Assembly (NCBI GenBank): GCA_963714015.1
Contig: OY970223.1
Span: 3,168,001 to 3,232,000 of the forward strand
Direction: 5' to 3'
DNA: 64,000 nucleotides
Source: Vulcanimicrobiota bacterium
GTDB taxonomy: Bacteria; Vulcanimicrobiota; Vulcanimicrobiia; Vulcanimicrobiales; Vulcanimicrobiaceae
Part shown: positions 55,748 through 63,632 of the stretch, piece after piece
Layout: every line of letters starts with the position of its first letter
Numbering within the stretch: position 1 is the first letter of the stretch
Position numbers and translations under genes: made by a program
The notes under the pieces: model-generated
What the model was told of the DNA's origin: nothing
The model's database searches: none
The model's input: only the letters and a program-made list of their open reading frames with translations

Positions 55748-56755
55748 ATGCGTCCTTTTCGGCTTCTTGGGGCTCTCGGTGCCCTCGTCGCTCTCTCAGC
55801 CGTCATTGCCTGCGGAGGCGGCGGCGGCACGTCGACACCTCCTGTCGGAGCTCCCTCGTCTAACCCGGGGGGGAGCCCCGGACCGGGCGGAAGCTCCAGT
55901 CCGCCCTCGTCCGGCTCGCCTTCGCCGACCTCCACACCGCGCGATACTCCGGTGCCGACGCGAACACCGATCTCGACGGCGACCCCAAGTCCCGTACCGA
56001 CCAGCACGGCGCCCCCTACACCCTATCCCTCGCCCTCGGGCACGCCCAACCCAACTCTCACCGTGACCACCGGTCATGGCGAAATCAATGGGACGGACGA
56101 TCAATTCACCGGCGGTATCGGTAAGGAAATCGGCGACGGCGACTATCCGGACGGCGGTCAAGGACCGGTCAACACCACATTCGGACCGGACAACGTGCCG
56201 TGTCTGGCGCAGATGTACGACGGACCGGTTCCACCCGGTTACCACGTTCACGCGTTCTTGGGCATCTATTACAACGGCACCGAAATTGCGATGCCGGACG
56301 GCGTCGGCATTGCCGACCCGGAAGGCGACATCACGTATCAGGGCATTCCGAATTGGACGCAGTACTCGTACGATCCCAATAACCCCGGAAAATCCGGCTG
56401 CTTCTATCAAATTCACACGCACGATCCGAGCGGTACGATTCACATTGAATCGTCGAATCCCAACAGCGTTCCGTTGACCGGCACGATATACACGCTGGGA
56501 GACGTGCTCGCGCTGTGGGGTATTCCGATTTCTTCCACGCAGTTTGGACCGTTCAGCGGCCAGATTCAAGTCTTCACCTCCGGCCAAATCCCCCGTTTCA
56601 AGCAAGGGGAGGTCGGATCCAACACGTACACGCTGTACAACGGCGACATGAGAAACATCGCGCTGTACACGCACGAAGTAATCTGGGTTCTGATTGGCAC
56701 GGGCAACCCGACGTACGCAGCGCTTCCCAACGTCGGTTTCTGGGATGAGTACTGA
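55748..56755 (+). CDS. Lipoprotein with Pro/Thr linker and His-motif domain
   Basis: Lipobox VIAC, PT-rich linker, YHVHAFL, CFYQIHTHD..GTIHIE. Confidence 0.75.
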   Translation: MRPFRLLGALGALVALSAVIACGGGGGTSTPPVGAPSSNPGGSPGPGGSSSPPSSGSPSPTSTPRDTPVPTRTPISTATPSPVPTSTAPPTPYPSPSGTPNPTLTVTTGHGEINGTDDQFTGGIGKEIGDGDYPDGGQGPVNTTFGPDNVPCLAQMYDGPVPPGYHVHAFLGIYYNGTEIAMPDGVGIADPEGDITYQGIPNWTQYSYDPNNPGKSGCFYQIHTHDPSGTIHIESSNPNSVPLTGTIYTLGDVLALWGIPISSTQFGPFSGQIQVFTSGQIPRFKQGEVGSNTYTLYNGDMRNIALYTHEVIWVLIGTGNPTYAALPNVGFWDEY

Positions 56756-56776
56756 GCCGGCAGCAATCTGACACTT

Positions 56777-56809
56777 AAAGGTTCGCTCGAAAGAGCGGGC
56801 CTTTTCTTT
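56777..56809 (+). terminator. Intrinsic terminator
   Basis: AAGGTTCGCTC-GAAA-GAGCGGGCCTT-TTCTTT. Confidence 0.75.
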
Positions 56810-56826
56810 AACGAATACTGGAGAGG

Positions 56827-57373
56827 ATGAGACGAGCGCTCCCGCTGTGGATCGCCGCGGTGGTGCCGGCAACATTGGCTGGGCACAGCCTGGCGTATGC
56901 GCTCAACCGCCAGTCCGCTTCGGGCTCGCAGCACATGTGGATGCAACCCACGTGGGAGGCGTCGCTTTCGGTGTTGTCGGCAATCTGCGCTGTCTGCATC
57001 GGCGGCGCGCTGATTCGGGCCGGAATTCTGAGGCACAGCGCCGTGGAAGGGCGTTTCAATCTGCTGTGGCCCCGAATGGCCTTCGCCCAGGTCGTGCTTT
57101 TCGCACTAGCGGAGCATGCAGAAGGTGCGCGAGTCGGGCTATCCGCTCTCGCCGTACAAGTGCTCGTCGCCGCTTTCGCCGCCGCGCTCGTTGCTTTGTT
57201 CGCGCGTCTGCTGCGGCGCTGCATCGATGCGGCCGAAGAAGCGAGCCGGTATCTGGAACGCTTGCTGAAGTTCGGCTCTACCTTTGTGCCGCGCCGCCGC
57301 GTGCGGCCTTCATTCGCTTTGGAGATAAGCGCGGGAACCGCGCGCTTTCAACGACCGCCTCCGTCCGAATCAG
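56827..57373 (+). CDS. Multi-TM leader protein ending RFQRPPP (putative arrest peptide); stop probably obscured by a 1-nt insertion at 57371
   Basis: GGAGAGG SD; about 4 hydrophobic helices with His (GHSLAY, QHMW, AEHAE); basic linker then RPPP; resembles 60611-61120. Confidence 0.6.
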
Positions 57374-57414
57374 CTCGTTTCCGCCTTTTAGTCATCACCC
57401 AAGCTATTCGGAGG
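57361..57414 (+). promoter_or_regulatory. Stem sequestering the SD of the cytochrome-porin gene
   Basis: TCCGAAT(C)AGCT (57364-57375) pairs with AGCTATTCGGA (57402-57412), overlapping the GGAGG SD before GTG 57421. Confidence 0.65.
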
Positions 57415-57420
57415 TTTTCC

Positions 57421-59193
57421 GTGTATCGCATGACGACAATGTTCGCGCGCGTGTTCGCAGGCGCAGCCCTTACCGTGATGCTGTGTACTGCGCGCGCATA
57501 CGCCGTGCCCGTCTTTGCAAACGGTCAGGGAATATCGTGTGAGACCTGCCACACGACCTTTCCCGGCATGACGCGCTACGGAATGATGGTCATGATGACG
57601 AATTTTCAGATATTGAACCGCCATCTCCAGGATCAGGCGCTTCCGATTTCGGCGCGCATATACATTCAGTCGCTTCTGGCAAACAAAGACCACCCGGGCA
57701 ATACCATGGTTTCCGATCTGTCGCTCCTGGGCGGCGGCTTTTTGGGACGCAACTTCACCTGGTACACGGAGCAGCACGTCATCGATTCCGGGGTTATCGG
57801 TCAGACGGAGCAGGTTTGGCTTTCGTGGAACGGCCTGCTGCACGGAACCAATTCGATCCAGGTCGGAAAGTTTCACACGCCGTTCCCATTCATGCCGGCG
57901 CACGCGTGGACGATCAGCCCGTATCTGCTTGCAGCGCAAACGACCGGCCAGAATGATTTCAATCCGAATGACGCGCGGTGGGGCGTTGCGTTCAACGGAA
58001 TGTCCAACGAGTTCATGTACAATCTCTCGTGGCTCACCGGAAGCGGATCGACCGGCGACGCGCTGGACTACAACCAAACGCGCAATCCACGAACAATCGA
58101 CGCAAACGTCTCCTACGGCGGCATGTCCATCCCCTGGAGCGTAGGGCTGGTCGGGATACGCGGCTGGGCGCCGCTAAGCGATACCGCAACCGGAGATTTT
58201 CTGGGCACCGATCCGTTCAGTCGCGAAGGCGTGTACTTCGGCTATCAGACCAACGCATGGCACTATCAAAGCATGTATTACCATGGATTCGACGCCAATC
58301 CGGACGTGGGCCTCGCCGACGTTCCGATGAACGGGTTTTTCTTCGAAGCCGAACGAGATTTGGGGTGGCAAAACCACATTCTGCTGCGCTATGACGTCGC
58401 ATCGAGCGATACGCTGAATCGCCAAATCGTCTTCGATCTCTCGCACAACGTGTTGCCGAACCTCGCGCTGATAGGCGAACTCGCGGGTTATCCCAACGCG
58501 CGTCCGCAGATTGCGTTTCAAATCGCATACGCAGGACCGTACCAATTCGGAAAGCGGTATCTCTCCAATCTGCACGTCGCGCCGGTGGGCGGAGAAGGCA
58601 CTTCAAACAGCGCCTCGGCAACAGCCGCACCCGCCGCAAGTTCAGCGCCCGCGGCGGAGAACTCCGCAGCACCGGGCAATGCGTCCGCCGGGGCCGCCTT
58701 GGTTCAGGCCAACGGCTGCGAAGGCTGCCATGGCGCGGCACTGAAGGGCGGCGGTGTTGGTCCGGCGCTCTACGGCGTCGAGCACAAACTTACGGCGGAT
58801 CAGATCGCGAACGCCATTCGGAACCCGAAAGCGCCGATGCCGAACTTCGGTTTCAGTCAGGCGCAGATCGCCGATCTGGTCGCGTATCTTTCGAATCTCG
58901 ACGGCGGTCAGACCGGACAGCAACCAGTAGTCACGTTCAATCCGGCGAAGCCGACGGATATCGCCACGATCTCAATTCGCTTCCCGGGAACTCCGCCGAA
59001 GTCGGTTCGCGTTCTGCCGATCATGCAGATGGGAAAAAGCACGATGCAGACGCGCGAGATAACGCTTCAGCCGTCATCGGGCGATCCGAACGTATTCACG
59101 GGACAAATCGTCTTTTCGATGGGCGGCCCGTGGACGGTGCACGTCGAGTACGACGGCAACACGATGGACGTTCCGTTGAACGTGGGACAGTGA
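57421..59193 (+). CDS. Cyc2-like cytochrome-porin fusion with an extra cytochrome c and a YtkA/FixH-like C-terminal domain
   Basis: Signal peptide ..ARAYA, 'VPVFANGQGISCETCHTTFPGMTRYG', aromatic beta-strand region, Ala/Pro linker, CEGCH...MPNF, C-terminal 'MQMG...FSMGGPWTVHV'. Confidence 0.65.
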   Translation: MYRMTTMFARVFAGAALTVMLCTARAYAVPVFANGQGISCETCHTTFPGMTRYGMMVMMTNFQILNRHLQDQALPISARIYIQSLLANKDHPGNTMVSDLSLLGGGFLGRNFTWYTEQHVIDSGVIGQTEQVWLSWNGLLHGTNSIQVGKFHTPFPFMPAHAWTISPYLLAAQTTGQNDFNPNDARWGVAFNGMSNEFMYNLSWLTGSGSTGDALDYNQTRNPRTIDANVSYGGMSIPWSVGLVGIRGWAPLSDTATGDFLGTDPFSREGVYFGYQTNAWHYQSMYYHGFDANPDVGLADVPMNGFFFEAERDLGWQNHILLRYDVASSDTLNRQIVFDLSHNVLPNLALIGELAGYPNARPQIAFQIAYAGPYQFGKRYLSNLHVAPVGGEGTSNSASATAAPAASSAPAAENSAAPGNASAGAALVQANGCEGCHGAALKGGGVGPALYGVEHKLTADQIANAIRNPKAPMPNFGFSQAQIADLVAYLSNLDGGQTGQQPVVTFNPAKPTDIATISIRFPGTPPKSVRVLPIMQMGKSTMQTREITLQPSSGDPNVFTGQIVFSMGGPWTVHVEYDGNTMDVPLNVGQ

Positions 59194-60614
59194 TGCGCCG
59201 ATCCGCCTTTTTGCGGATCGGTACGGGGACGATGGTTGCCGCGGCTCTTCCATCGATGTCGCGCCGCGCACTGGCGGCGGACGTTGTCGACTACAAGCTC
59301 ACCGCGTCGCCTCTGGCATTTGCGCCTGCGCCGAACATGCAGTTTCCGGGGCTGGCGTTCAATGGAACGATTCCAGGCCCCCTACTGCGCATCGTGCATG
59401 GTCAGCGCCTGCGGGCGCTCTTCATAAACAACTGCGGACAGCCGGCGACGATCCATTGGCACGGTATGATTCTTCCGAACAATATGGACGGCGTCGAAGG
59501 CGTGACGCAGGCCGCAGTTCCCGATCGGGAGACGTTTCTTTACGAATTCACGCCCGGTCCGCCCGGAACGCGCTGGTATCACGACCACGTCAGCGACGGA
59601 GTCGCCCGGGGGTTGTTCGGGCTGATCGTCGTCGAAGATCCAAAAGACGAGCCGGCCGACGCCGAATTCGCACTGGTCTTTCACGACGTGCCGAGGCTTG
59701 CCACGATTCAAGCGGCCATGATGGGCGTGAGCGCTGCACCAATGGTGGACCCCATCGGATCCCCCGAAATGACGTCGATGCAGCCCAACGACAAGATGGG
59801 CGACGAAGTGGCATACAGCGCGCACTGCATCAACGGGCAGACATATCCGAATACGCAAAAGCTTGCCGTAAAAGTCGGCCAGCGCGTGCGTCTGAGAATA
59901 TTGAACGCAAATCCGACGCAGACGCGCTATGTTCGGCTCGCCGGACATTCACTGACCGTGACGCACTGCGACGGCAACCTGATGGATCAGCCGGTTACGG
60001 TAGACGCGCTGCGCGTCGGAGTTGCAGAACGGTACGACGCGTGGTTTACCGTCACGGAACCGGGTGCGTGGCTGTTGCAAGGACTCTCCAGCGAGCCGCT
60101 CGCCTATCAGCAGGCGGCTGTCGTGCACACTCCGGGAATGGAAAACGCCCCTCCGCTTTCTTCGCCTGAGACACTCGAGGGCGTCCGGTATTTCACGTAC
60201 GAGATCGCCGGGGCCGCGCTCGGTCCGGGCACCGGTGACATGCTAGCGGCACATTCATTCGTTCTGGGCGGCGGCAAGTATGCCAGCAACAAGTGGACCA
60301 TAAACGGAAAGACCTACCCGAACACACCGAAAATTTACGTTCATCGCGGCGACCGGGTCACCGTGCACTTCAAAAACACTACCGATATGGACCATCCCAT
60401 GCATCTGCACGGTCACGTTTTTCGTTTAACCAGCGTAGATGGTAAGAGGCTGACCCGCCCGCTGCCCAAAGACACCTCGCTGGTCCGTTCCAACGGCGGA
60501 ACGGCGGAATGGGAGTTCGTGGCGGATTCACCCAAGGGACGTTGGCTGTTGCATTGCCATAACGAGATTCATATGATGGACGGGATGATGACGGAGGTAG
60601 TCTACCGCTCGTGA
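59193..60614 (+). CDS. Multicopper oxidase with Tat signal
   Basis: MRRSAFL Tat motif, IHWHG, WYHDH, HPMHLHGH, HCHNEIHMMDGM. Confidence 0.93.
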   Translation: MRRSAFLRIGTGTMVAAALPSMSRRALAADVVDYKLTASPLAFAPAPNMQFPGLAFNGTIPGPLLRIVHGQRLRALFINNCGQPATIHWHGMILPNNMDGVEGVTQAAVPDRETFLYEFTPGPPGTRWYHDHVSDGVARGLFGLIVVEDPKDEPADAEFALVFHDVPRLATIQAAMMGVSAAPMVDPIGSPEMTSMQPNDKMGDEVAYSAHCINGQTYPNTQKLAVKVGQRVRLRILNANPTQTRYVRLAGHSLTVTHCDGNLMDQPVTVDALRVGVAERYDAWFTVTEPGAWLLQGLSSEPLAYQQAAVVHTPGMENAPPLSSPETLEGVRYFTYEIAGAALGPGTGDMLAAHSFVLGGGKYASNKWTINGKTYPNTPKIYVHRGDRVTVHFKNTTDMDHPMHLHGHVFRLTSVDGKRLTRPLPKDTSLVRSNGGTAEWEFVADSPKGRWLLHCHNEIHMMDGMMTEVVYRS

Positions 60615-61120
60615 GGAGCCGCCTCGGCCGGAAAATCTGGACCGCAGCGCTGCTGGGATTGCCCGCAGCGTTGTTTGCGCACGTCATCGTATTCGGCGGC
60701 GAGCATACGCTCGGCGGCTCCGCACATTCGTGGCTGCTCGAGTTCGGCGGGGTCTTCGCATTCCTCGGCACGCTCGTTGCGGCGATCGGCGCCGTGCGAC
60801 GGTCGACGGCAGTCGTCCCGAAATTCGCGCCGATTCTCACAGGCGCCGCAGGCTGGTTCGGCATTATCGAGCTCTGCGAGAGCGCGCACGGTATCCCCAT
60901 TGCGGCGGTCATCGCTGCTCTCGTCTTCGCCGCGTGGATCGTCCGCGCCGTGCTTTCGGCATTCGCGCACACCGTCGCCGCTATCGCGGCAATTCTTCAA
61001 CTATACCTTAGAGCCGCCAAGCCTCCGGCACCGGCTCTAATAAAACGGGCCGTGCCGCGCGCGCATTCATGCGTGCACCGGCTGCGCTTGTTCTCTCGGC
61101 CGCCGCCTCTCTTCGCTTAA
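60611..61120 (+). CDS. Multi-TM His-containing leader protein ending LFSRPPPLFA (putative arrest peptide)
   Basis: GTGA overlap with the MCO stop; about 4 TM helices with FAHV, GEH, SAH, SAHG; basic linker then RPPP three residues before the stop. Confidence 0.7.
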   Translation: MRSRLGRKIWTAALLGLPAALFAHVIVFGGEHTLGGSAHSWLLEFGGVFAFLGTLVAAIGAVRRSTAVVPKFAPILTGAAGWFGIIELCESAHGIPIAAVIAALVFAAWIVRAVLSAFAHTVAAIAAILQLYLRAAKPPAPALIKRAVPRAHSCVHRLRLFSRPPPLFA

Positions 61121-61192
61121 ACGCCGCGTCCACTGGGACGCCCGCGCGCAAGCTCTTGCGCGTTTCTTTCACATACAACTGCGTTTAAGGAA
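61112..61192 (+). promoter_or_regulatory. Multi-branched structure sequestering the TBDR SD
   Basis: CTTAAACGC (61116-61124) is the exact reverse complement of GCGTTTAAG (61181-61189, overlapping the AAGGA SD); inner hairpins GCGTCC/GGACGC and CGCGCAA/TTGCGCG plus TTTCTTTC. Confidence 0.65.
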
Positions 61193-61199
61193 AAATTTC

Positions 61200-63632
61200 A
61201 TGTCTAGAATTCTCGCGGCGCTGCTTGCCGCGTTTATCACAATCACGGCGCTGCCGGCGATGGCGGATACGATCGGTATCGTTCGCGGAACGGTCGAAGT
61301 CAACGGCAAGCCGGCGGCCGGCGTTAAAGTCACGCTCAGCGGCGAAGGCACCGTCGACCAGCGCAAGACCGACGAGGGCGGTACTTATATTTTCTCCGGC
61401 GTACAGTTCGGCAGCTATACGCTCACAGCCGACTATCCGGGCGTCGCGCCCCGTACGGTTCAACTGTCGGTTTCCTCCGATCAAGTTCTCACCGTCAACA
61501 TGGCGCTCGGCGAGCTCAAAACGATCGGAAGCGCAACCGTTACGGCTCACGCAGGCGTGAGCGGCACACCGGTCTCGGTAAACGACGTCACCAAGCAGCA
61601 GATCGCCGCTCTCCCCATCAACAACAGCCTGAATCAGCTCGTTCAGACTGTGCCCGGCGTCGTACGGTTCTCCTATAACGAGCCGGTCGCGCACGGGTTC
61701 CATGGCGTGACGTACGAAATGGACGGCGCGCCGATGCCGCTTGCGACCAGTTCGAACTTCGCCGAGATCATCGATCCCAAGAACATCGACTCTTTGGAAA
61801 TCTTCACCGGCGCGATTCCCGCCGAGTACGGCGGAAACCGCGAAGGTGCGGTCGTGAATATCATCAGCAACCGCGCGAGCGATCTGACGGCACCTTACGA
61901 GGGTTACTTCACGACCGGCGGCGGGAGCTTTGGTCAGGTGGTGAACAGCTTCGACAACGCATTCAAAACTGGCAAGACCGAGATCTTCCTGAACGCGAAC
62001 ACGCAGGTGGGCAGTCGCGGCCTGGACACGCCGACTGTCACCCCGATTCATGACGAGAACTCGCAGTCGGACGAGTTTCTGCGAACGATTACCACGTTCA
62101 ACGATCGGCAGTCGCTGGCGTTCGACGTCTCCAATCAGCTGGCGCAGTTCCAGATCCCGATGAACACGAACCCCAACGATCCGACCGACCCGCAATTCAA
62201 CGTTCCGGCTACGGACGACGTTCAGCGCGAATACGACCGCTATGCGAGTCTGAATTTCACGAGCTCGTCGAAAGACGGGAACGGCATCTTCCAGCTCATT
62301 CCTTGGGTCCGCTCCACACGCATTGCCTACGACGGCGACTTACAGAACGACGTTCTGGGCTTGACTAATCTGGGACCGTGCTCCGGTCAGAGCCCGGCGC
62401 CGTCGTTCTGCACGAGCGCCAATCCCGATGCTCCGGTTTACCAAAGCGCGATCGGGCTCAAGCAGGACCGCAAAGCCAACTACGTCGGCCTTCGCGTGTC
62501 GGACTTCCGGGCCACTTCGCACCACGCGTTCAAGGTTGGATTGGACGCGAACCGTGAAATCCTGACCGCGGACGAAACGTTCGCGTGCTACGACCCCACT
62601 TGCAATACGGTGGTACCCGGGTACCCCTTACCGCCGGCGGCTTCGTTCACGACGAACACCACGAACCAGGATCAGGCCGGGACGCAAGTGGGTCTCTATG
62701 CGCAAGACAAGTGGACGCCCTCGCAGCAGTTGTCCGTGGACTACGGACTTCGCTACGATCGCTCGACCGGTTACGTCGGCGGCGATCAATTGAGCCCACG
62801 CATCGGCGTAAACTATGCTCCCGACAGCACGAACGTCATCCATGCGTACTACGGCCGCTTCTACGCCGCACCGCAGCTCGAGGACGTCCGTCAAGCGTGC
62901 GTCGTTCTGCAAGGCTGCTCGGGAACCCCGACGTATGACCTCAAGCCGGAGACCGACTCGTATGCGGAGATCGGATTGTCGCACACGTTCTCACCGAGGC
63001 TGAGCGTCTACGTCAACCAGTGGGAACGCTACGTGAGCAACGTTTTGGATACCACGCAGCTCCTGAATACACCGCTGTTCGCCGTGTACAACAACGCGAT
63101 CGGCCGCGCGCGCGGAACCGAGGTCAGGATGCAGGCCAAGCTCCATAAGGCGGACACGTGGTTCATTTCGGGAACGTGGTCCAATTCGCTCGCGGCCGGC
63201 ATCTCGGGATCGACGTTCCTCTTCCCGCCCTCGCAGCAGACTGTTCCAGGGGTTCCGCTGATCGACCAGCTCTCGCCGGAAGATCACAGCGAAGCAGTCG
63301 CGGTGAATTCCGCCTACACGCATCGCTTCGGTTTGAATGAGGCGTATTACGCAACGATCGAGGGCGAGTACGGAACGGGGTTCCCCGTGAGCTTCGAGGG
63401 TCTCGTAAACGGCCAGCCCGTCGGATTCAGCGGCACGCTCCCGACGCACTTGACCGCAGACCTGGCTCTTGGGCGCGATCCGGGCCGCAACGGCGATCGC
63501 TCATTGGGCTACGATCTAAGCATCCAGAACCTGTTCAACGATCGGTACATCATCAAAATCGCCAACGGGTTCAACACGACGCAGTACTCGCAAGGGTTCA
63601 ACGCGCTCTTCCGCGTGACCGCGCCGCTGTAG
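61200..63632 (+). CDS. TonB-dependent receptor with N-terminal carboxypeptidase-regulatory-like domain
   Basis: Signal peptide ..PAMA, plug 'IDSLEIFTGAIPAEYG..GAVVNI', YAQDKW, GLRYD, LSPRIG, LKPE, QNLFN. Confidence 0.9.
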   Translation: MSRILAALLAAFITITALPAMADTIGIVRGTVEVNGKPAAGVKVTLSGEGTVDQRKTDEGGTYIFSGVQFGSYTLTADYPGVAPRTVQLSVSSDQVLTVNMALGELKTIGSATVTAHAGVSGTPVSVNDVTKQQIAALPINNSLNQLVQTVPGVVRFSYNEPVAHGFHGVTYEMDGAPMPLATSSNFAEIIDPKNIDSLEIFTGAIPAEYGGNREGAVVNIISNRASDLTAPYEGYFTTGGGSFGQVVNSFDNAFKTGKTEIFLNANTQVGSRGLDTPTVTPIHDENSQSDEFLRTITTFNDRQSLAFDVSNQLAQFQIPMNTNPNDPTDPQFNVPATDDVQREYDRYASLNFTSSSKDGNGIFQLIPWVRSTRIAYDGDLQNDVLGLTNLGPCSGQSPAPSFCTSANPDAPVYQSAIGLKQDRKANYVGLRVSDFRATSHHAFKVGLDANREILTADETFACYDPTCNTVVPGYPLPPAASFTTNTTNQDQAGTQVGLYAQDKWTPSQQLSVDYGLRYDRSTGYVGGDQLSPRIGVNYAPDSTNVIHAYYGRFYAAPQLEDVRQACVVLQGCSGTPTYDLKPETDSYAEIGLSHTFSPRLSVYVNQWERYVSNVLDTTQLLNTPLFAVYNNAIGRARGTEVRMQAKLHKADTWFISGTWSNSLAAGISGSTFLFPPSQQTVPGVPLIDQLSPEDHSEAVAVNSAYTHRFGLNEAYYATIEGEYGTGFPVSFEGLVNGQPVGFSGTLPTHLTADLALGRDPGRNGDRSLGYDLSIQNLFNDRYIIKIANGFNTTQYSQGFNALFRVTAPL

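Follow-up and report, generated by a model that had tools for sequence, protein, structure and literature searches.

We examined a window of 64,000 nucleotides from a Vulcanimicrobiota bacterium (assembly GCA_963714015.1, contig OY970223.1, positions 3,168,001 to 3,232,000 of the forward strand; positions below are those of the window). Two short open reading frames (ORFs) in this window, leader 1 and leader 2, encode four-helix membrane proteins with a C-terminal Arg-Pro-Pro-Pro (RPPP) tail and precede a Cyc2-like cytochrome gene and a TonB-dependent receptor gene, respectively (Table 1). The leaders probably represent a new polytopic family of RAPP-like arrest-peptide leaders that work like CutF and CruR. 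A sequence-only reading of the same DNA had proposed that the two leaders gate the downstream genes by ribosome stalling. This interpretation is supported, and the computational checks named with it (the motif, the His residues, the downstream genes, pairing with the Shine-Dalgarno sequence or SD, and membership in DUF2946) all favored it. What we infer is the gating itself, together with the pause, the signal, and the sign of that signal for each leader.

In the proposed mechanism, each leader would be a small inner-membrane protein of four helices, with conserved His and Glu residues where helices 1 to 3 are predicted to reach the periplasm. The ribosome would pause or arrest once the third motif residue occupies the P site and the codon of the final Pro stands in the A site, as for RAPP peptides. 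In idle mRNA, the SD of the next gene would be paired with the motif codons (CCUCC), with the tail and stop codons, or with both. A ribosome sitting on the motif would cover this anti-SD, leaving the SD free and allowing the downstream gene to be translated. The length of the pause would be set by the membrane part of the leader itself.

Leader families and the R-x-P-P tail

Neither leader matches a Pfam or NCBIfam family. For leader 2, a word-indexed search of 5.8 billion proteins returned 27 relatives of 157 to 184 aa, and at E <= 0.001 a profile search against 1.84 billion representatives yielded 172 clusters, to which no taxonomy is attached; most relatives are 157 to 206 aa long. The named relatives come from metagenome-assembled genomes labeled Candidatus Baltobacteraceae, Eremiobacteraeota, or Vulcanimicrobiota, and the nearest Atlas cluster to a leader is mostly Vulcanimicrobiota. 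Within the phylum, the leader 2 profile matched 179 of 401 genomes (177 of 296 genomes of the window's own family, 1 of 30 of a second, and none from the 19 other families sampled), and leader 1 relatives were present in 55 of 301 genomes of the window's own family; the tallies of 401 and 301 genomes each include five unpublished genomes. Both leaders are unannotated families that, among the genomes searched, lie almost wholly within one Vulcanimicrobiota/Eremiobacterota family. The ESM Atlas also contains unnamed clusters in Actinomycetota (0.92) and Planctomycetota (0.91), which serve as leads only. Given this conservation and the confident structural model described below, we rejected the explanation that the leaders are spurious ORFs in a GC-rich genome.

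The two families are only remotely similar to each other. Leader 1 was not recovered by the leader 2 profile, and BLASTP of one leader against the other aligned only F(Q/S)RPPP. Profile-profile comparison with hhalign aligned the families over helices 1 to 3 (probability 57%, E 1e-4), the single match on which their remote homology depends, and placed H20, H36, E96, and E99 of leader 1 in register with H24, H39, E87, and E90 of leader 2.

A scan of this genome for hydrophobic ORFs of 50 to 320 aa with R(P/A/G)PP at most 25 residues from the stop and a long ORF downstream returned leader 2 and one more ORF only, and it missed leader 1, which is stopless in the assembly. The third candidate leader lies outside the window (G000:C1:996680-997243; L093:181-744), is hydrophobic and 187 aa long, and ends HGSKRGPPL-stop, 48 nt 5' of a gene for a 902-aa TonB receptor with CarboxypepD_reg and Plug domains. 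It has no Pfam family and is matched by neither leader profile.

The tail is the most constant part of both families. Of 169 leader 2 relatives, 156 carry RPPP and 8 carry RAPP in the same position; the remaining 5 are fragments or match only at the N-terminus. The motif lies 0 to 17 residues from the C-terminus of these relatives, most often 3 (75 of 156). Across the 149 aligned full-length members, R163, P165, and P166 never vary, P164 is present in 95%, and the 30-residue linker that precedes the tail has almost no conserved column. The leader 1 homologues end in (S/A)RF(Q/K/V)RPPP followed by two residues and the stop; 18 of 19 have RPPP and 1 has RAPP (RFGRAPP). Two of 40 further leader 2 loci, both close to RFARPPP forms, have RFGRAPP and RSGRAPP. 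Overall, the tail consensus of the leaders is (R/h)(L/F)(F/Y)(S/A)-R-(P/A)-P-P, a few codons before the stop, and R-x-P-P is retained by all 19 leader 1 relatives as well as by the 156 RPPP and 8 RAPP relatives of leader 2, as the sequence-only reading had anticipated.

The motif draws on five codons for Arg and on all four for Pro. Because of this codon usage, the variable linker, and the invariance of R163 and P165-166, selection acts on the tail peptide and not on RNA alone. The motif, its placement near the stop, and the pairing described below recur in relatives and are therefore more than chance. RAPP and RGPP are experimentally shown arrest motifs (PMC12992588; PMC10987492), and RPPP was the strongest XPPP staller tested in E. 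coli without elongation factor P, EF-P (PMC4176338). CruR stalls with motif codons 3 and 4 in the P and A sites (PMC12992588). By analogy with these peptides, the RPPP tail is a putative RAPP-like arrest motif.

Membrane domain and downstream genes

We modeled both leaders with AlphaFold2. The leader 2 model, from the 149-sequence alignment, has a predicted local distance difference test score (pLDDT) of 90 and a predicted template modeling score of 0.78, with helices at residues 2-28, 36-62, 72-88, and 97-136; its final 30 residues have pLDDT 65-76, and the tail is exposed. The leader 1 model, from 19 sequences, has the same four-helix layout (pLDDT 74). A Foldseek search of the leader 2 model against the PDB returned nothing at E <= 0.001. 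In the leader 2 family, H24, H32, H39, E87, E90, and H93 are conserved at 83 to 100%, and no Cys is conserved at >= 80%. The leader 1 family has an invariant Cys, C132, in the long fourth helix of the model. Four helices with His at matching positions had been noticed in the two leader sequences before any model was available, and the two models, the hhalign register, and the conservation of the His and Glu residues agree with that description.

The N-terminus of leader 2 and the loop at residues 63-71 are rich in Arg and Lys, and the loops at 29-35 and 89-96 have none; on this basis, the positive-inside rule would place the conserved His and Glu residues on the periplasmic face and the tail in the cytoplasm. 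A cytoplasmic tail would match the requirement of an arrest peptide. The same predicted topology would place C132 of leader 1 on the cytoplasmic side. From the last hydrophobic segment to the last Pro, the median distance is 35 residues for the leader 2 family and 48 for that of leader 1, although this hydropathy-based linker length is crude, bimodal, and threshold-dependent and gives a hint only. A helix leaving the ribosome tunnel can pull on the nascent chain at about such a linker length. Because helix 4 ends approximately 30 to 50 residues before the arrest point, its insertion could pull on the nascent chain, and metal binding at the His and Glu residues could alter the pull.

The genes downstream of the leaders fall into a few classes. 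In 68 leader 2 loci, not counting the window's own locus and one locus of an unpublished genome, the next gene encodes a receptor (51), a Cyc2-like protein (2), CopC (4), an AhpC/TSA-redoxin protein (4), or a member of one secreted family without a Pfam match (7). Among the best 30 leader 2 profile loci, 28 were counted (25 with a CarboxypepD_reg/Plug receptor, 2 Cyc2-like, and 1 with no Pfam family); 40 more loci, taken in list order, with gaps, from the remaining profile matches, have a receptor identified by a local hidden Markov model (26), CopC (4), AhpC/TSA-redoxin (4), or no Pfam family (6). For leader 1 relatives, a Cyc2-like gene with a cytochrome c domain is downstream in 18 of 19 loci, and in the 19th the ORF is cut before the cytochrome domain. 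The whole order of leader 1, Cyc2-like gene, multicopper oxidase, leader 2, and receptor recurs in two other genera. The spacer from the leader stop to the next start on the same strand is 24 to 130 nt.

The loci with CopC or AhpC/TSA-redoxin (thioredoxin-like) genes downstream are L060, L062, L068, and L074 and L066, L069, L071, and L087; these two classes are among those reported for RAPP/RGPP leaders of other phyla. The Pfam-less downstream family (L072, L077, L081, L083, L086, L090, and L023) is secreted and beta-rich, with the mature N-terminus AHVVCGDRVFPTTLTMDDPGV, and it may be an outer-membrane protein.

The sequence-only reading had placed metal or redox genes downstream of the two leaders, and in the relatives this was borne out by the receptors, the Cyc2-like gene with its multicopper oxidase, CopC, and the redoxins. 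Because CopC, the oxidase, and the redoxins are among the downstream genes, copper is the most likely metal to be sensed; the Cyc2-like gene and the His/Glu ligands leave iron as an alternative. A more specific version of the mechanism, which we consider rather unlikely and put forward tentatively, is that the leaders are lineage-wide polytopic force-sensor arrest peptides: metal at the periplasmic His and Glu residues of helices 1 to 3 would tune the pull exerted by insertion or docking of helix 4 and hence the dwell time at R-P-P-P, the arrest codons would double as the anti-SD, and the two diverged paralogues would allow metal oxidation and metal uptake to be controlled separately, and possibly in opposite directions, from one transcript.

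Predicted pairing with the downstream Shine-Dalgarno sequence

In the window, positions 61112-61124 are predicted to pair with 61181-61192 (stem 2) and positions 57358-57375 with 57402-57414 (stem 1). The sequence-only reading had claimed that the nucleotides past RPPP pair with the downstream SD in both copies, by different sequences, and folding agrees. The pairing also recurs across relatives, where the paired sequences differ, and arms from the same junction pair better than arms taken from different junctions. To describe it, we used 88 junctions (28 first-batch leader 2 loci, 19 leader 1 loci, 40 further loci, and leader 1 of the window) and defined the footprint as the 28 nt that would lie under a ribosome whose P site holds the third motif residue; the anchored duplex and pairing-probability tests were fitted to this footprint model of our own. 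In the short-tail group, to which both window leaders belong, the SD and its 5' flank pair with the final codons, the stop, and a few bases past it; one such stem joins CTTTCCTAAAC with GTTTAGGAAAG, and other subgroups differ in sequence. In the long-tail group (5 to 9 residues), whose SD is of the GGAGG type, CGGAGGA pairs with the Pro codons (CCTCCTCCG) and with the initial codons of the tail.

Averaged over the 88 junctions, the SD is paired with a probability of 0.87; the footprint accounts for 0.65 of this and an equal window just upstream for 0.01. In 65 of 88 junctions, most of the SD pairing lies in the footprint. For leader 2 of the window, the footprint contributes 0.87 of an SD pairing of 0.92, and for leader 1 as assembled it contributes 0.32 of 0.76. 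In free mRNA, then, the SD is predicted to be paired with the segment that a motif-stalled ribosome would cover. The SD is unpaired at 0.13, compared with 0.26 when the 5' part is shuffled; in 37 of 88 loci its pairing equals or exceeds that in 19 of 20 shuffles. With the footprint blocked, the unpaired value rises to 0.27, and the short-tail group responds strongly, the long-tail group weakly. Duplexes between cognate arms have an energy of -14.2 kcal/mol, compared with -10.1 kcal/mol between non-cognate ones; in 41 of 88 junctions (short-tail, 31 of 50; long-tail, 10 of 38) the cognate arm ranks within the top tenth.

Codon choice in the motif follows the type of SD. CCTCC occurs within the motif codons in 45 of the 53 junctions that have GGAG in the SD versus 16 of the 35 others, and CCT makes up 92 of 261 motif Pro codons (35%) versus 11 of 168 (6.5%) in four genes of the window. 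This enrichment indicates RNA-level selection on the Pro codons, and as such it also fits constitutive translational coupling, in which the leaders would be ordinary membrane proteins, the ribosome finishing the leader would melt the stem, the Pro run would slow the ribosome or supply CCUCC, and nothing would be sensed. The stop codon lies inside the stem, so a terminating ribosome would open the stem too; starts and stops overlap along the operon; and the confident model (pLDDT 90) is that of a stable protein. We nevertheless consider coupling of this kind unlikely. RPPP is kept in 19 leader-2-type junctions that have neither CCTCC in the motif codons nor GGAG in the SD, the invariant Arg is encoded by five codons and is not needed for pairing, and the alternation of RPPP with RAPP breaks the CCNCC run and retains a known arrest motif. 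Coupling would also leave unexplained the conserved, predicted periplasmic His/Glu cluster and the metal-related downstream genes. The narrower idea that PPP is retained merely as an RNA anti-SD was rejected because of the same three features of the motif: its retention without CCTCC and GGAG, an Arg that pairing does not need, and the RAPP exchange.

The codon bias also bears on the possibility that the R-P-P-P tail is a protein-level signal, such as a docking site for a partner or a protease, of the finished membrane protein, with the ribosome playing no part. Proline-rich tails often bind partners, and the tail is predicted to be cytoplasmic and is exposed in the model, with pLDDT 65-76 across the last 30 residues. 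A signal of this type would leave unexplained the anti-SD in or beside the motif codons, the codon bias linked to SD type, the constant closeness of the motif to the stop, and the RAPP exchange, and we regard it as very improbable.

The output could instead be transcriptional, as in Bordetella CruR, which is reported to work via Rho-dependent termination (bioRxiv 10.1101/2025.02.05.636593). Here, a ribosome at the motif would block Rho or a nested terminator before the receptor gene, and SD occlusion would be secondary. The spacer between leader 2 and the receptor contains an 8-pair hairpin followed by TTCTTTC (61144-61163), and comparable GC hairpins are present in the longer spacers of close relatives. 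However, relatives with spacers of 24 to 40 nt have no such hairpin, the U-tracts are poor, and the region contains 15 terminator-like sites versus 8.3 expected, such that single hits mean little. The feature that is conserved family-wide is the anti-SD inside the footprint. These observations make a transcriptional output quite unlikely.

Several points weigh against arrest-peptide gating, the reading that we prefer. This genome has an efp gene (254 bits), and EF-P normally relieves PPP pauses; therefore, the pause could be short. A fold predicted with such confidence points to a stable protein, perhaps one with its own function; metal binding at the His/Glu site is deduced from conservation only, and these ligands do not clearly point to copper. 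On the RNA side, 23 of 88 junctions do not have the majority of their SD pairing within the footprint and the average effect on the SD is modest, and because related genomes are non-independent the junction figures describe a pattern and are not a test of it, with p-values in the footprint-blocking and shuffling comparisons that overstate the significance. In the long-tail group, the SD often stays paired elsewhere when the footprint is blocked, and in three loci (L006, L007, and L009) the stem stops just 5' of the SD. Covariation in the alignment is weak, with a double change at 3 of 10 pairs among 12 close relatives, and a covariance model built from 12 close junctions reached few divergent loci; of its 29 matches at E <= 1, several lay on the wrong strand. 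When the junctions were aligned with MAFFT, RNAalifold returned only short, mostly invariant helices, because loop lengths differ.

Known arrest-peptide leaders and layout of the locus

We compared the leaders with DUF2946 (PF11162), the family of CutF and CruR. Neither leader matches it at E <= 0.1, nor does any of 149 family members at E <= 0.01, and the best DUF2946 match genome-wide (15.1 bits) is at a different place and below the 23.7-bit cutoff. The leaders lack the Sec signal peptide and the soluble Cys part of DUF2946 proteins, and they have the Pro-rich tail near the stop and before a metal gene. With the RAPP-like class they share transmembrane segments, small size, and a close downstream gene on the same strand. 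The claim that they are not DUF2946 proteins therefore holds for the leaders and their family members alike. The further claim, that they form an analogous but distinct family, stands as far as the fold and the absence of DUF2946 are concerned; as a concept it is not new, since a four-helix His-bearing arrest peptide has already been reported (PMC12992588).

CutF of Rhodobacter capsulatus (cutFOG) is a leader with a PPP tail before a multicopper oxidase gene, and a stem-loop shields the SD of cutO; stalling is proposed to open this stem-loop in response to periplasmic copper, with EF-P involved (bioRxiv 10.1101/2025.02.05.636593). CutF is a secreted DUF2946 member with a Sec signal peptide and a CxxxC site, whereas the leaders here are four-helix proteins with His and Glu, no conserved periplasmic Cys, and no DUF2946 match. 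Unlike in cutFOG, the Cyc2-like gene sits between leader 1 and the oxidase. CruR of Bordetella pertussis, for which arrest was shown in vitro (PMC12992588), resembles leader 2 in that a leader with a C-terminal R-x-P-P directly precedes the gene for a TonB-dependent receptor (BfrG) under metal-dependent post-transcriptional control. CruR has RAPP, belongs to DUF2946, and is reported to act through Rho-dependent termination, whereas leader 2 has RPPP, another fold, and a stem that pairs with the SD.

Fujiwara et al. (2025) described RAPP/RGPP leaders before genes for TonB receptors, copper proteins, and thioredoxin-like proteins (PMC12992588). Like the leaders here, they are small, are located in the membrane or secreted, carry the motif close to the C-terminus, and have similar downstream genes. 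Of those that precede TonB receptors, almost all are stated to have a signal peptide and not four helices (PMC12992588). One of the leaders reported, SLIV_18480 of Streptomyces lividans, has four transmembrane segments and conserved His residues and stalls in vitro (PMC12992588), a likeness to the leaders here that we draw from the published description and not from sequence. The survey covers RAPP and RGPP only, and RPPP does not occur in its text (PMC12992588).

The monitors SecM, MifM, VemP, ApdA, and ApdP combine an N-terminal element for localization, an arrest sequence at the C-terminus, and a structure that hides the SD until a stalled ribosome opens it, and they are released by pulling force (PMC10987492; bioRxiv 10.1101/2025.02.05.636593); the proposed arrangement of the leaders is similar. 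They control Sec/YidC genes and watch the export machinery, whereas the leaders precede metal and redox genes of the envelope and carry a putative ligand site. The logic by which a stalled ribosome opens the SD is described as shown for CutF-CutO and as proposed for SecM-like monitors (bioRxiv 10.1101/2025.02.05.636593), and by analogy it may apply here.

Our literature search found no paper on this RPPP leader family, and the papers retrieved with "RPPP" and "translation arrest" are not on such leaders. Arrest peptides of this kind, four-helix His-bearing ones included, have already been published as a concept; new here are the RPPP motif, the other fold, and this family. If the proposal is correct, arrest-peptide sensing of extracytoplasmic metals extends to another fold and to the RPPP motif, in a family that is common in one poorly studied soil phylum and that searches with RAPP/RGPP motifs would miss. 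The 172 clusters and five downstream gene classes provide material on how a folded membrane domain talks to the ribosome tunnel. For annotation, the leader ORFs should be treated as genuine genes that probably regulate envelope proteins related to copper or iron.

The locus is best explained as one operon of leader 1, a Cyc2-like cytochrome, a multicopper oxidase, leader 2, and a TonB-dependent receptor (Table 1).

Table 1. Features of the leader operon, in window positions
Feature	Position	Strand	Basis
Leader 1, four-helix membrane protein ending RFQRPPPSE, no stop as assembled	56827..57372	+	ORF and model
Leader 1 RPPP codons CGA CCG CCT CCG; CCTCC at 57358-57362 is complementary to the SD	57352..57363	+	
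Stem 1, 5' arm: tail codons and expected stop position, including extra base 57371	57364..57375	+	
Stem 1, 3' arm, containing SD GGAGG at 57410-57414	57402..57414	+	
Cyc2-like gene: signal peptide, N-terminal CxxCH, ~370 residues without a family, cytochrome c domain, weak YtkA-like end	57421..59193	+	
Multicopper oxidase, CopA-like	59193..60614	+	
Leader 2, 169-aa four-helix membrane protein ending RLFSRPPPLFA-TAA, GTG start	60611..61120	+	
Leader 2 RPPP codons CGG CCG CCG CCT	61097..61108	+	
Stem 2, 5' arm: final two codons, TAA stop, and 4 nt past the stop	61112..61124	+	
GC-rich hairpin followed by TTCTTTC, within the loop of stem 2	61144..61163	+	Terminator-like by consensus scan only
Stem 2, 3' arm, with SD AAGGAA at 61187-61192, 7 nt 5' of ATG	61181..61192	+	
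TonB-dependent receptor: CarboxypepD_reg, Plug, and barrel domains	61200..63632	+	

The stop of one gene overlaps the start of the next at the Cyc2-like/oxidase junction (TGATG, 59191-59195) and at the oxidase/leader 2 junction (GTGA, 60611-60614), which suggests chained translational coupling. The spacer from the leader 2 stop to the receptor start is 79 nt. Leader 1 RPPP is 57 nt from the GTG start of the Cyc2-like gene, with GGAGG in between, and ATG 57430 is an alternative start. No Rfam family was found in 56500-61400 at E <= 1. Cyc2 proteins have a single N-terminal CxxCH heme motif followed by an outer-membrane beta-barrel; in the protein encoded here, the motif (SCETCH) follows the signal peptide and a cytochrome c domain is present (PF13442, E 2.8e-13). 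Its residues 1-410 match no Pfam or NCBIfam family, and its nearest Atlas clusters are unnamed, one of which (score 0.97) has Porin_O_P on 20% of its members; the barrel is putative. The multicopper oxidase has three Cu-oxidase domains and matches TIGR01480 (3.8e-57).

The module had been described as present twice, each time as an ORF of 170 to 180 aa before a barrel gene. This is accurate for leader 2, a clean 169-aa ORF with an RPPP tail and a receptor gene downstream, and it needs qualification for leader 1, which as assembled has no stop past RPPP; its frame continues into the Cyc2-like gene to form a 788-aa ORF (56827-59193). A 252-nt contig of depth 4.7 from a public soil-metagenome run matches 57189-57441 except that base 57371 is missing. 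Deleting 57371 in silico yields a leader 1 of 181 aa that ends RPPPSE-TAG and turns the bulged stem 1 into a perfect helix (duplex -19.9 versus -16.1 kcal/mol). The stop codon is 0 to 8 codons past the motif in 19 of 19 leader 1 homologues and exactly two codons past it in 16. Because of the contig, the perfect stem, and the stop positions of the homologues, the extra C at 57371 is probably an assembly error or a very recent mutation, a judgment for which the evidence is thin: the public data for the locus come from one small-share DNA run whose contigs cover 57189-57441 only (no RNA run is listed), with a single low-depth contig at the site, and the run may be the genome's own sample. The apparent 788-aa fusion protein should accordingly be annotated as a probable one-base artifact or recent mutation. 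The genome, a single contig, has a completeness of 89.6%, which would be compatible with scattered indel errors.

A leader 2 homologue, L022 (G195:C62), is split across two frames, matched by the profile in two pieces, with no RPPP in the first frame, and the receptor gene downstream is intact; the split is a frameshift or a sequencing error. The leader 1 homologues (L033-L051) mostly start with GTG and have no obvious SD in the 14 nt upstream, whereas leader 1 of the window, unlike most of them, has GGAGAGG before ATG 56827. Directly 5' of leader 1 lies a 335-aa ORF (55748-56755) with a signal-peptide-like start and a long Pro/Ser/Thr-rich linker, which matches no Pfam or NCBIfam family. Between this ORF and leader 1 is a weak terminator-like hairpin (56785-56800).

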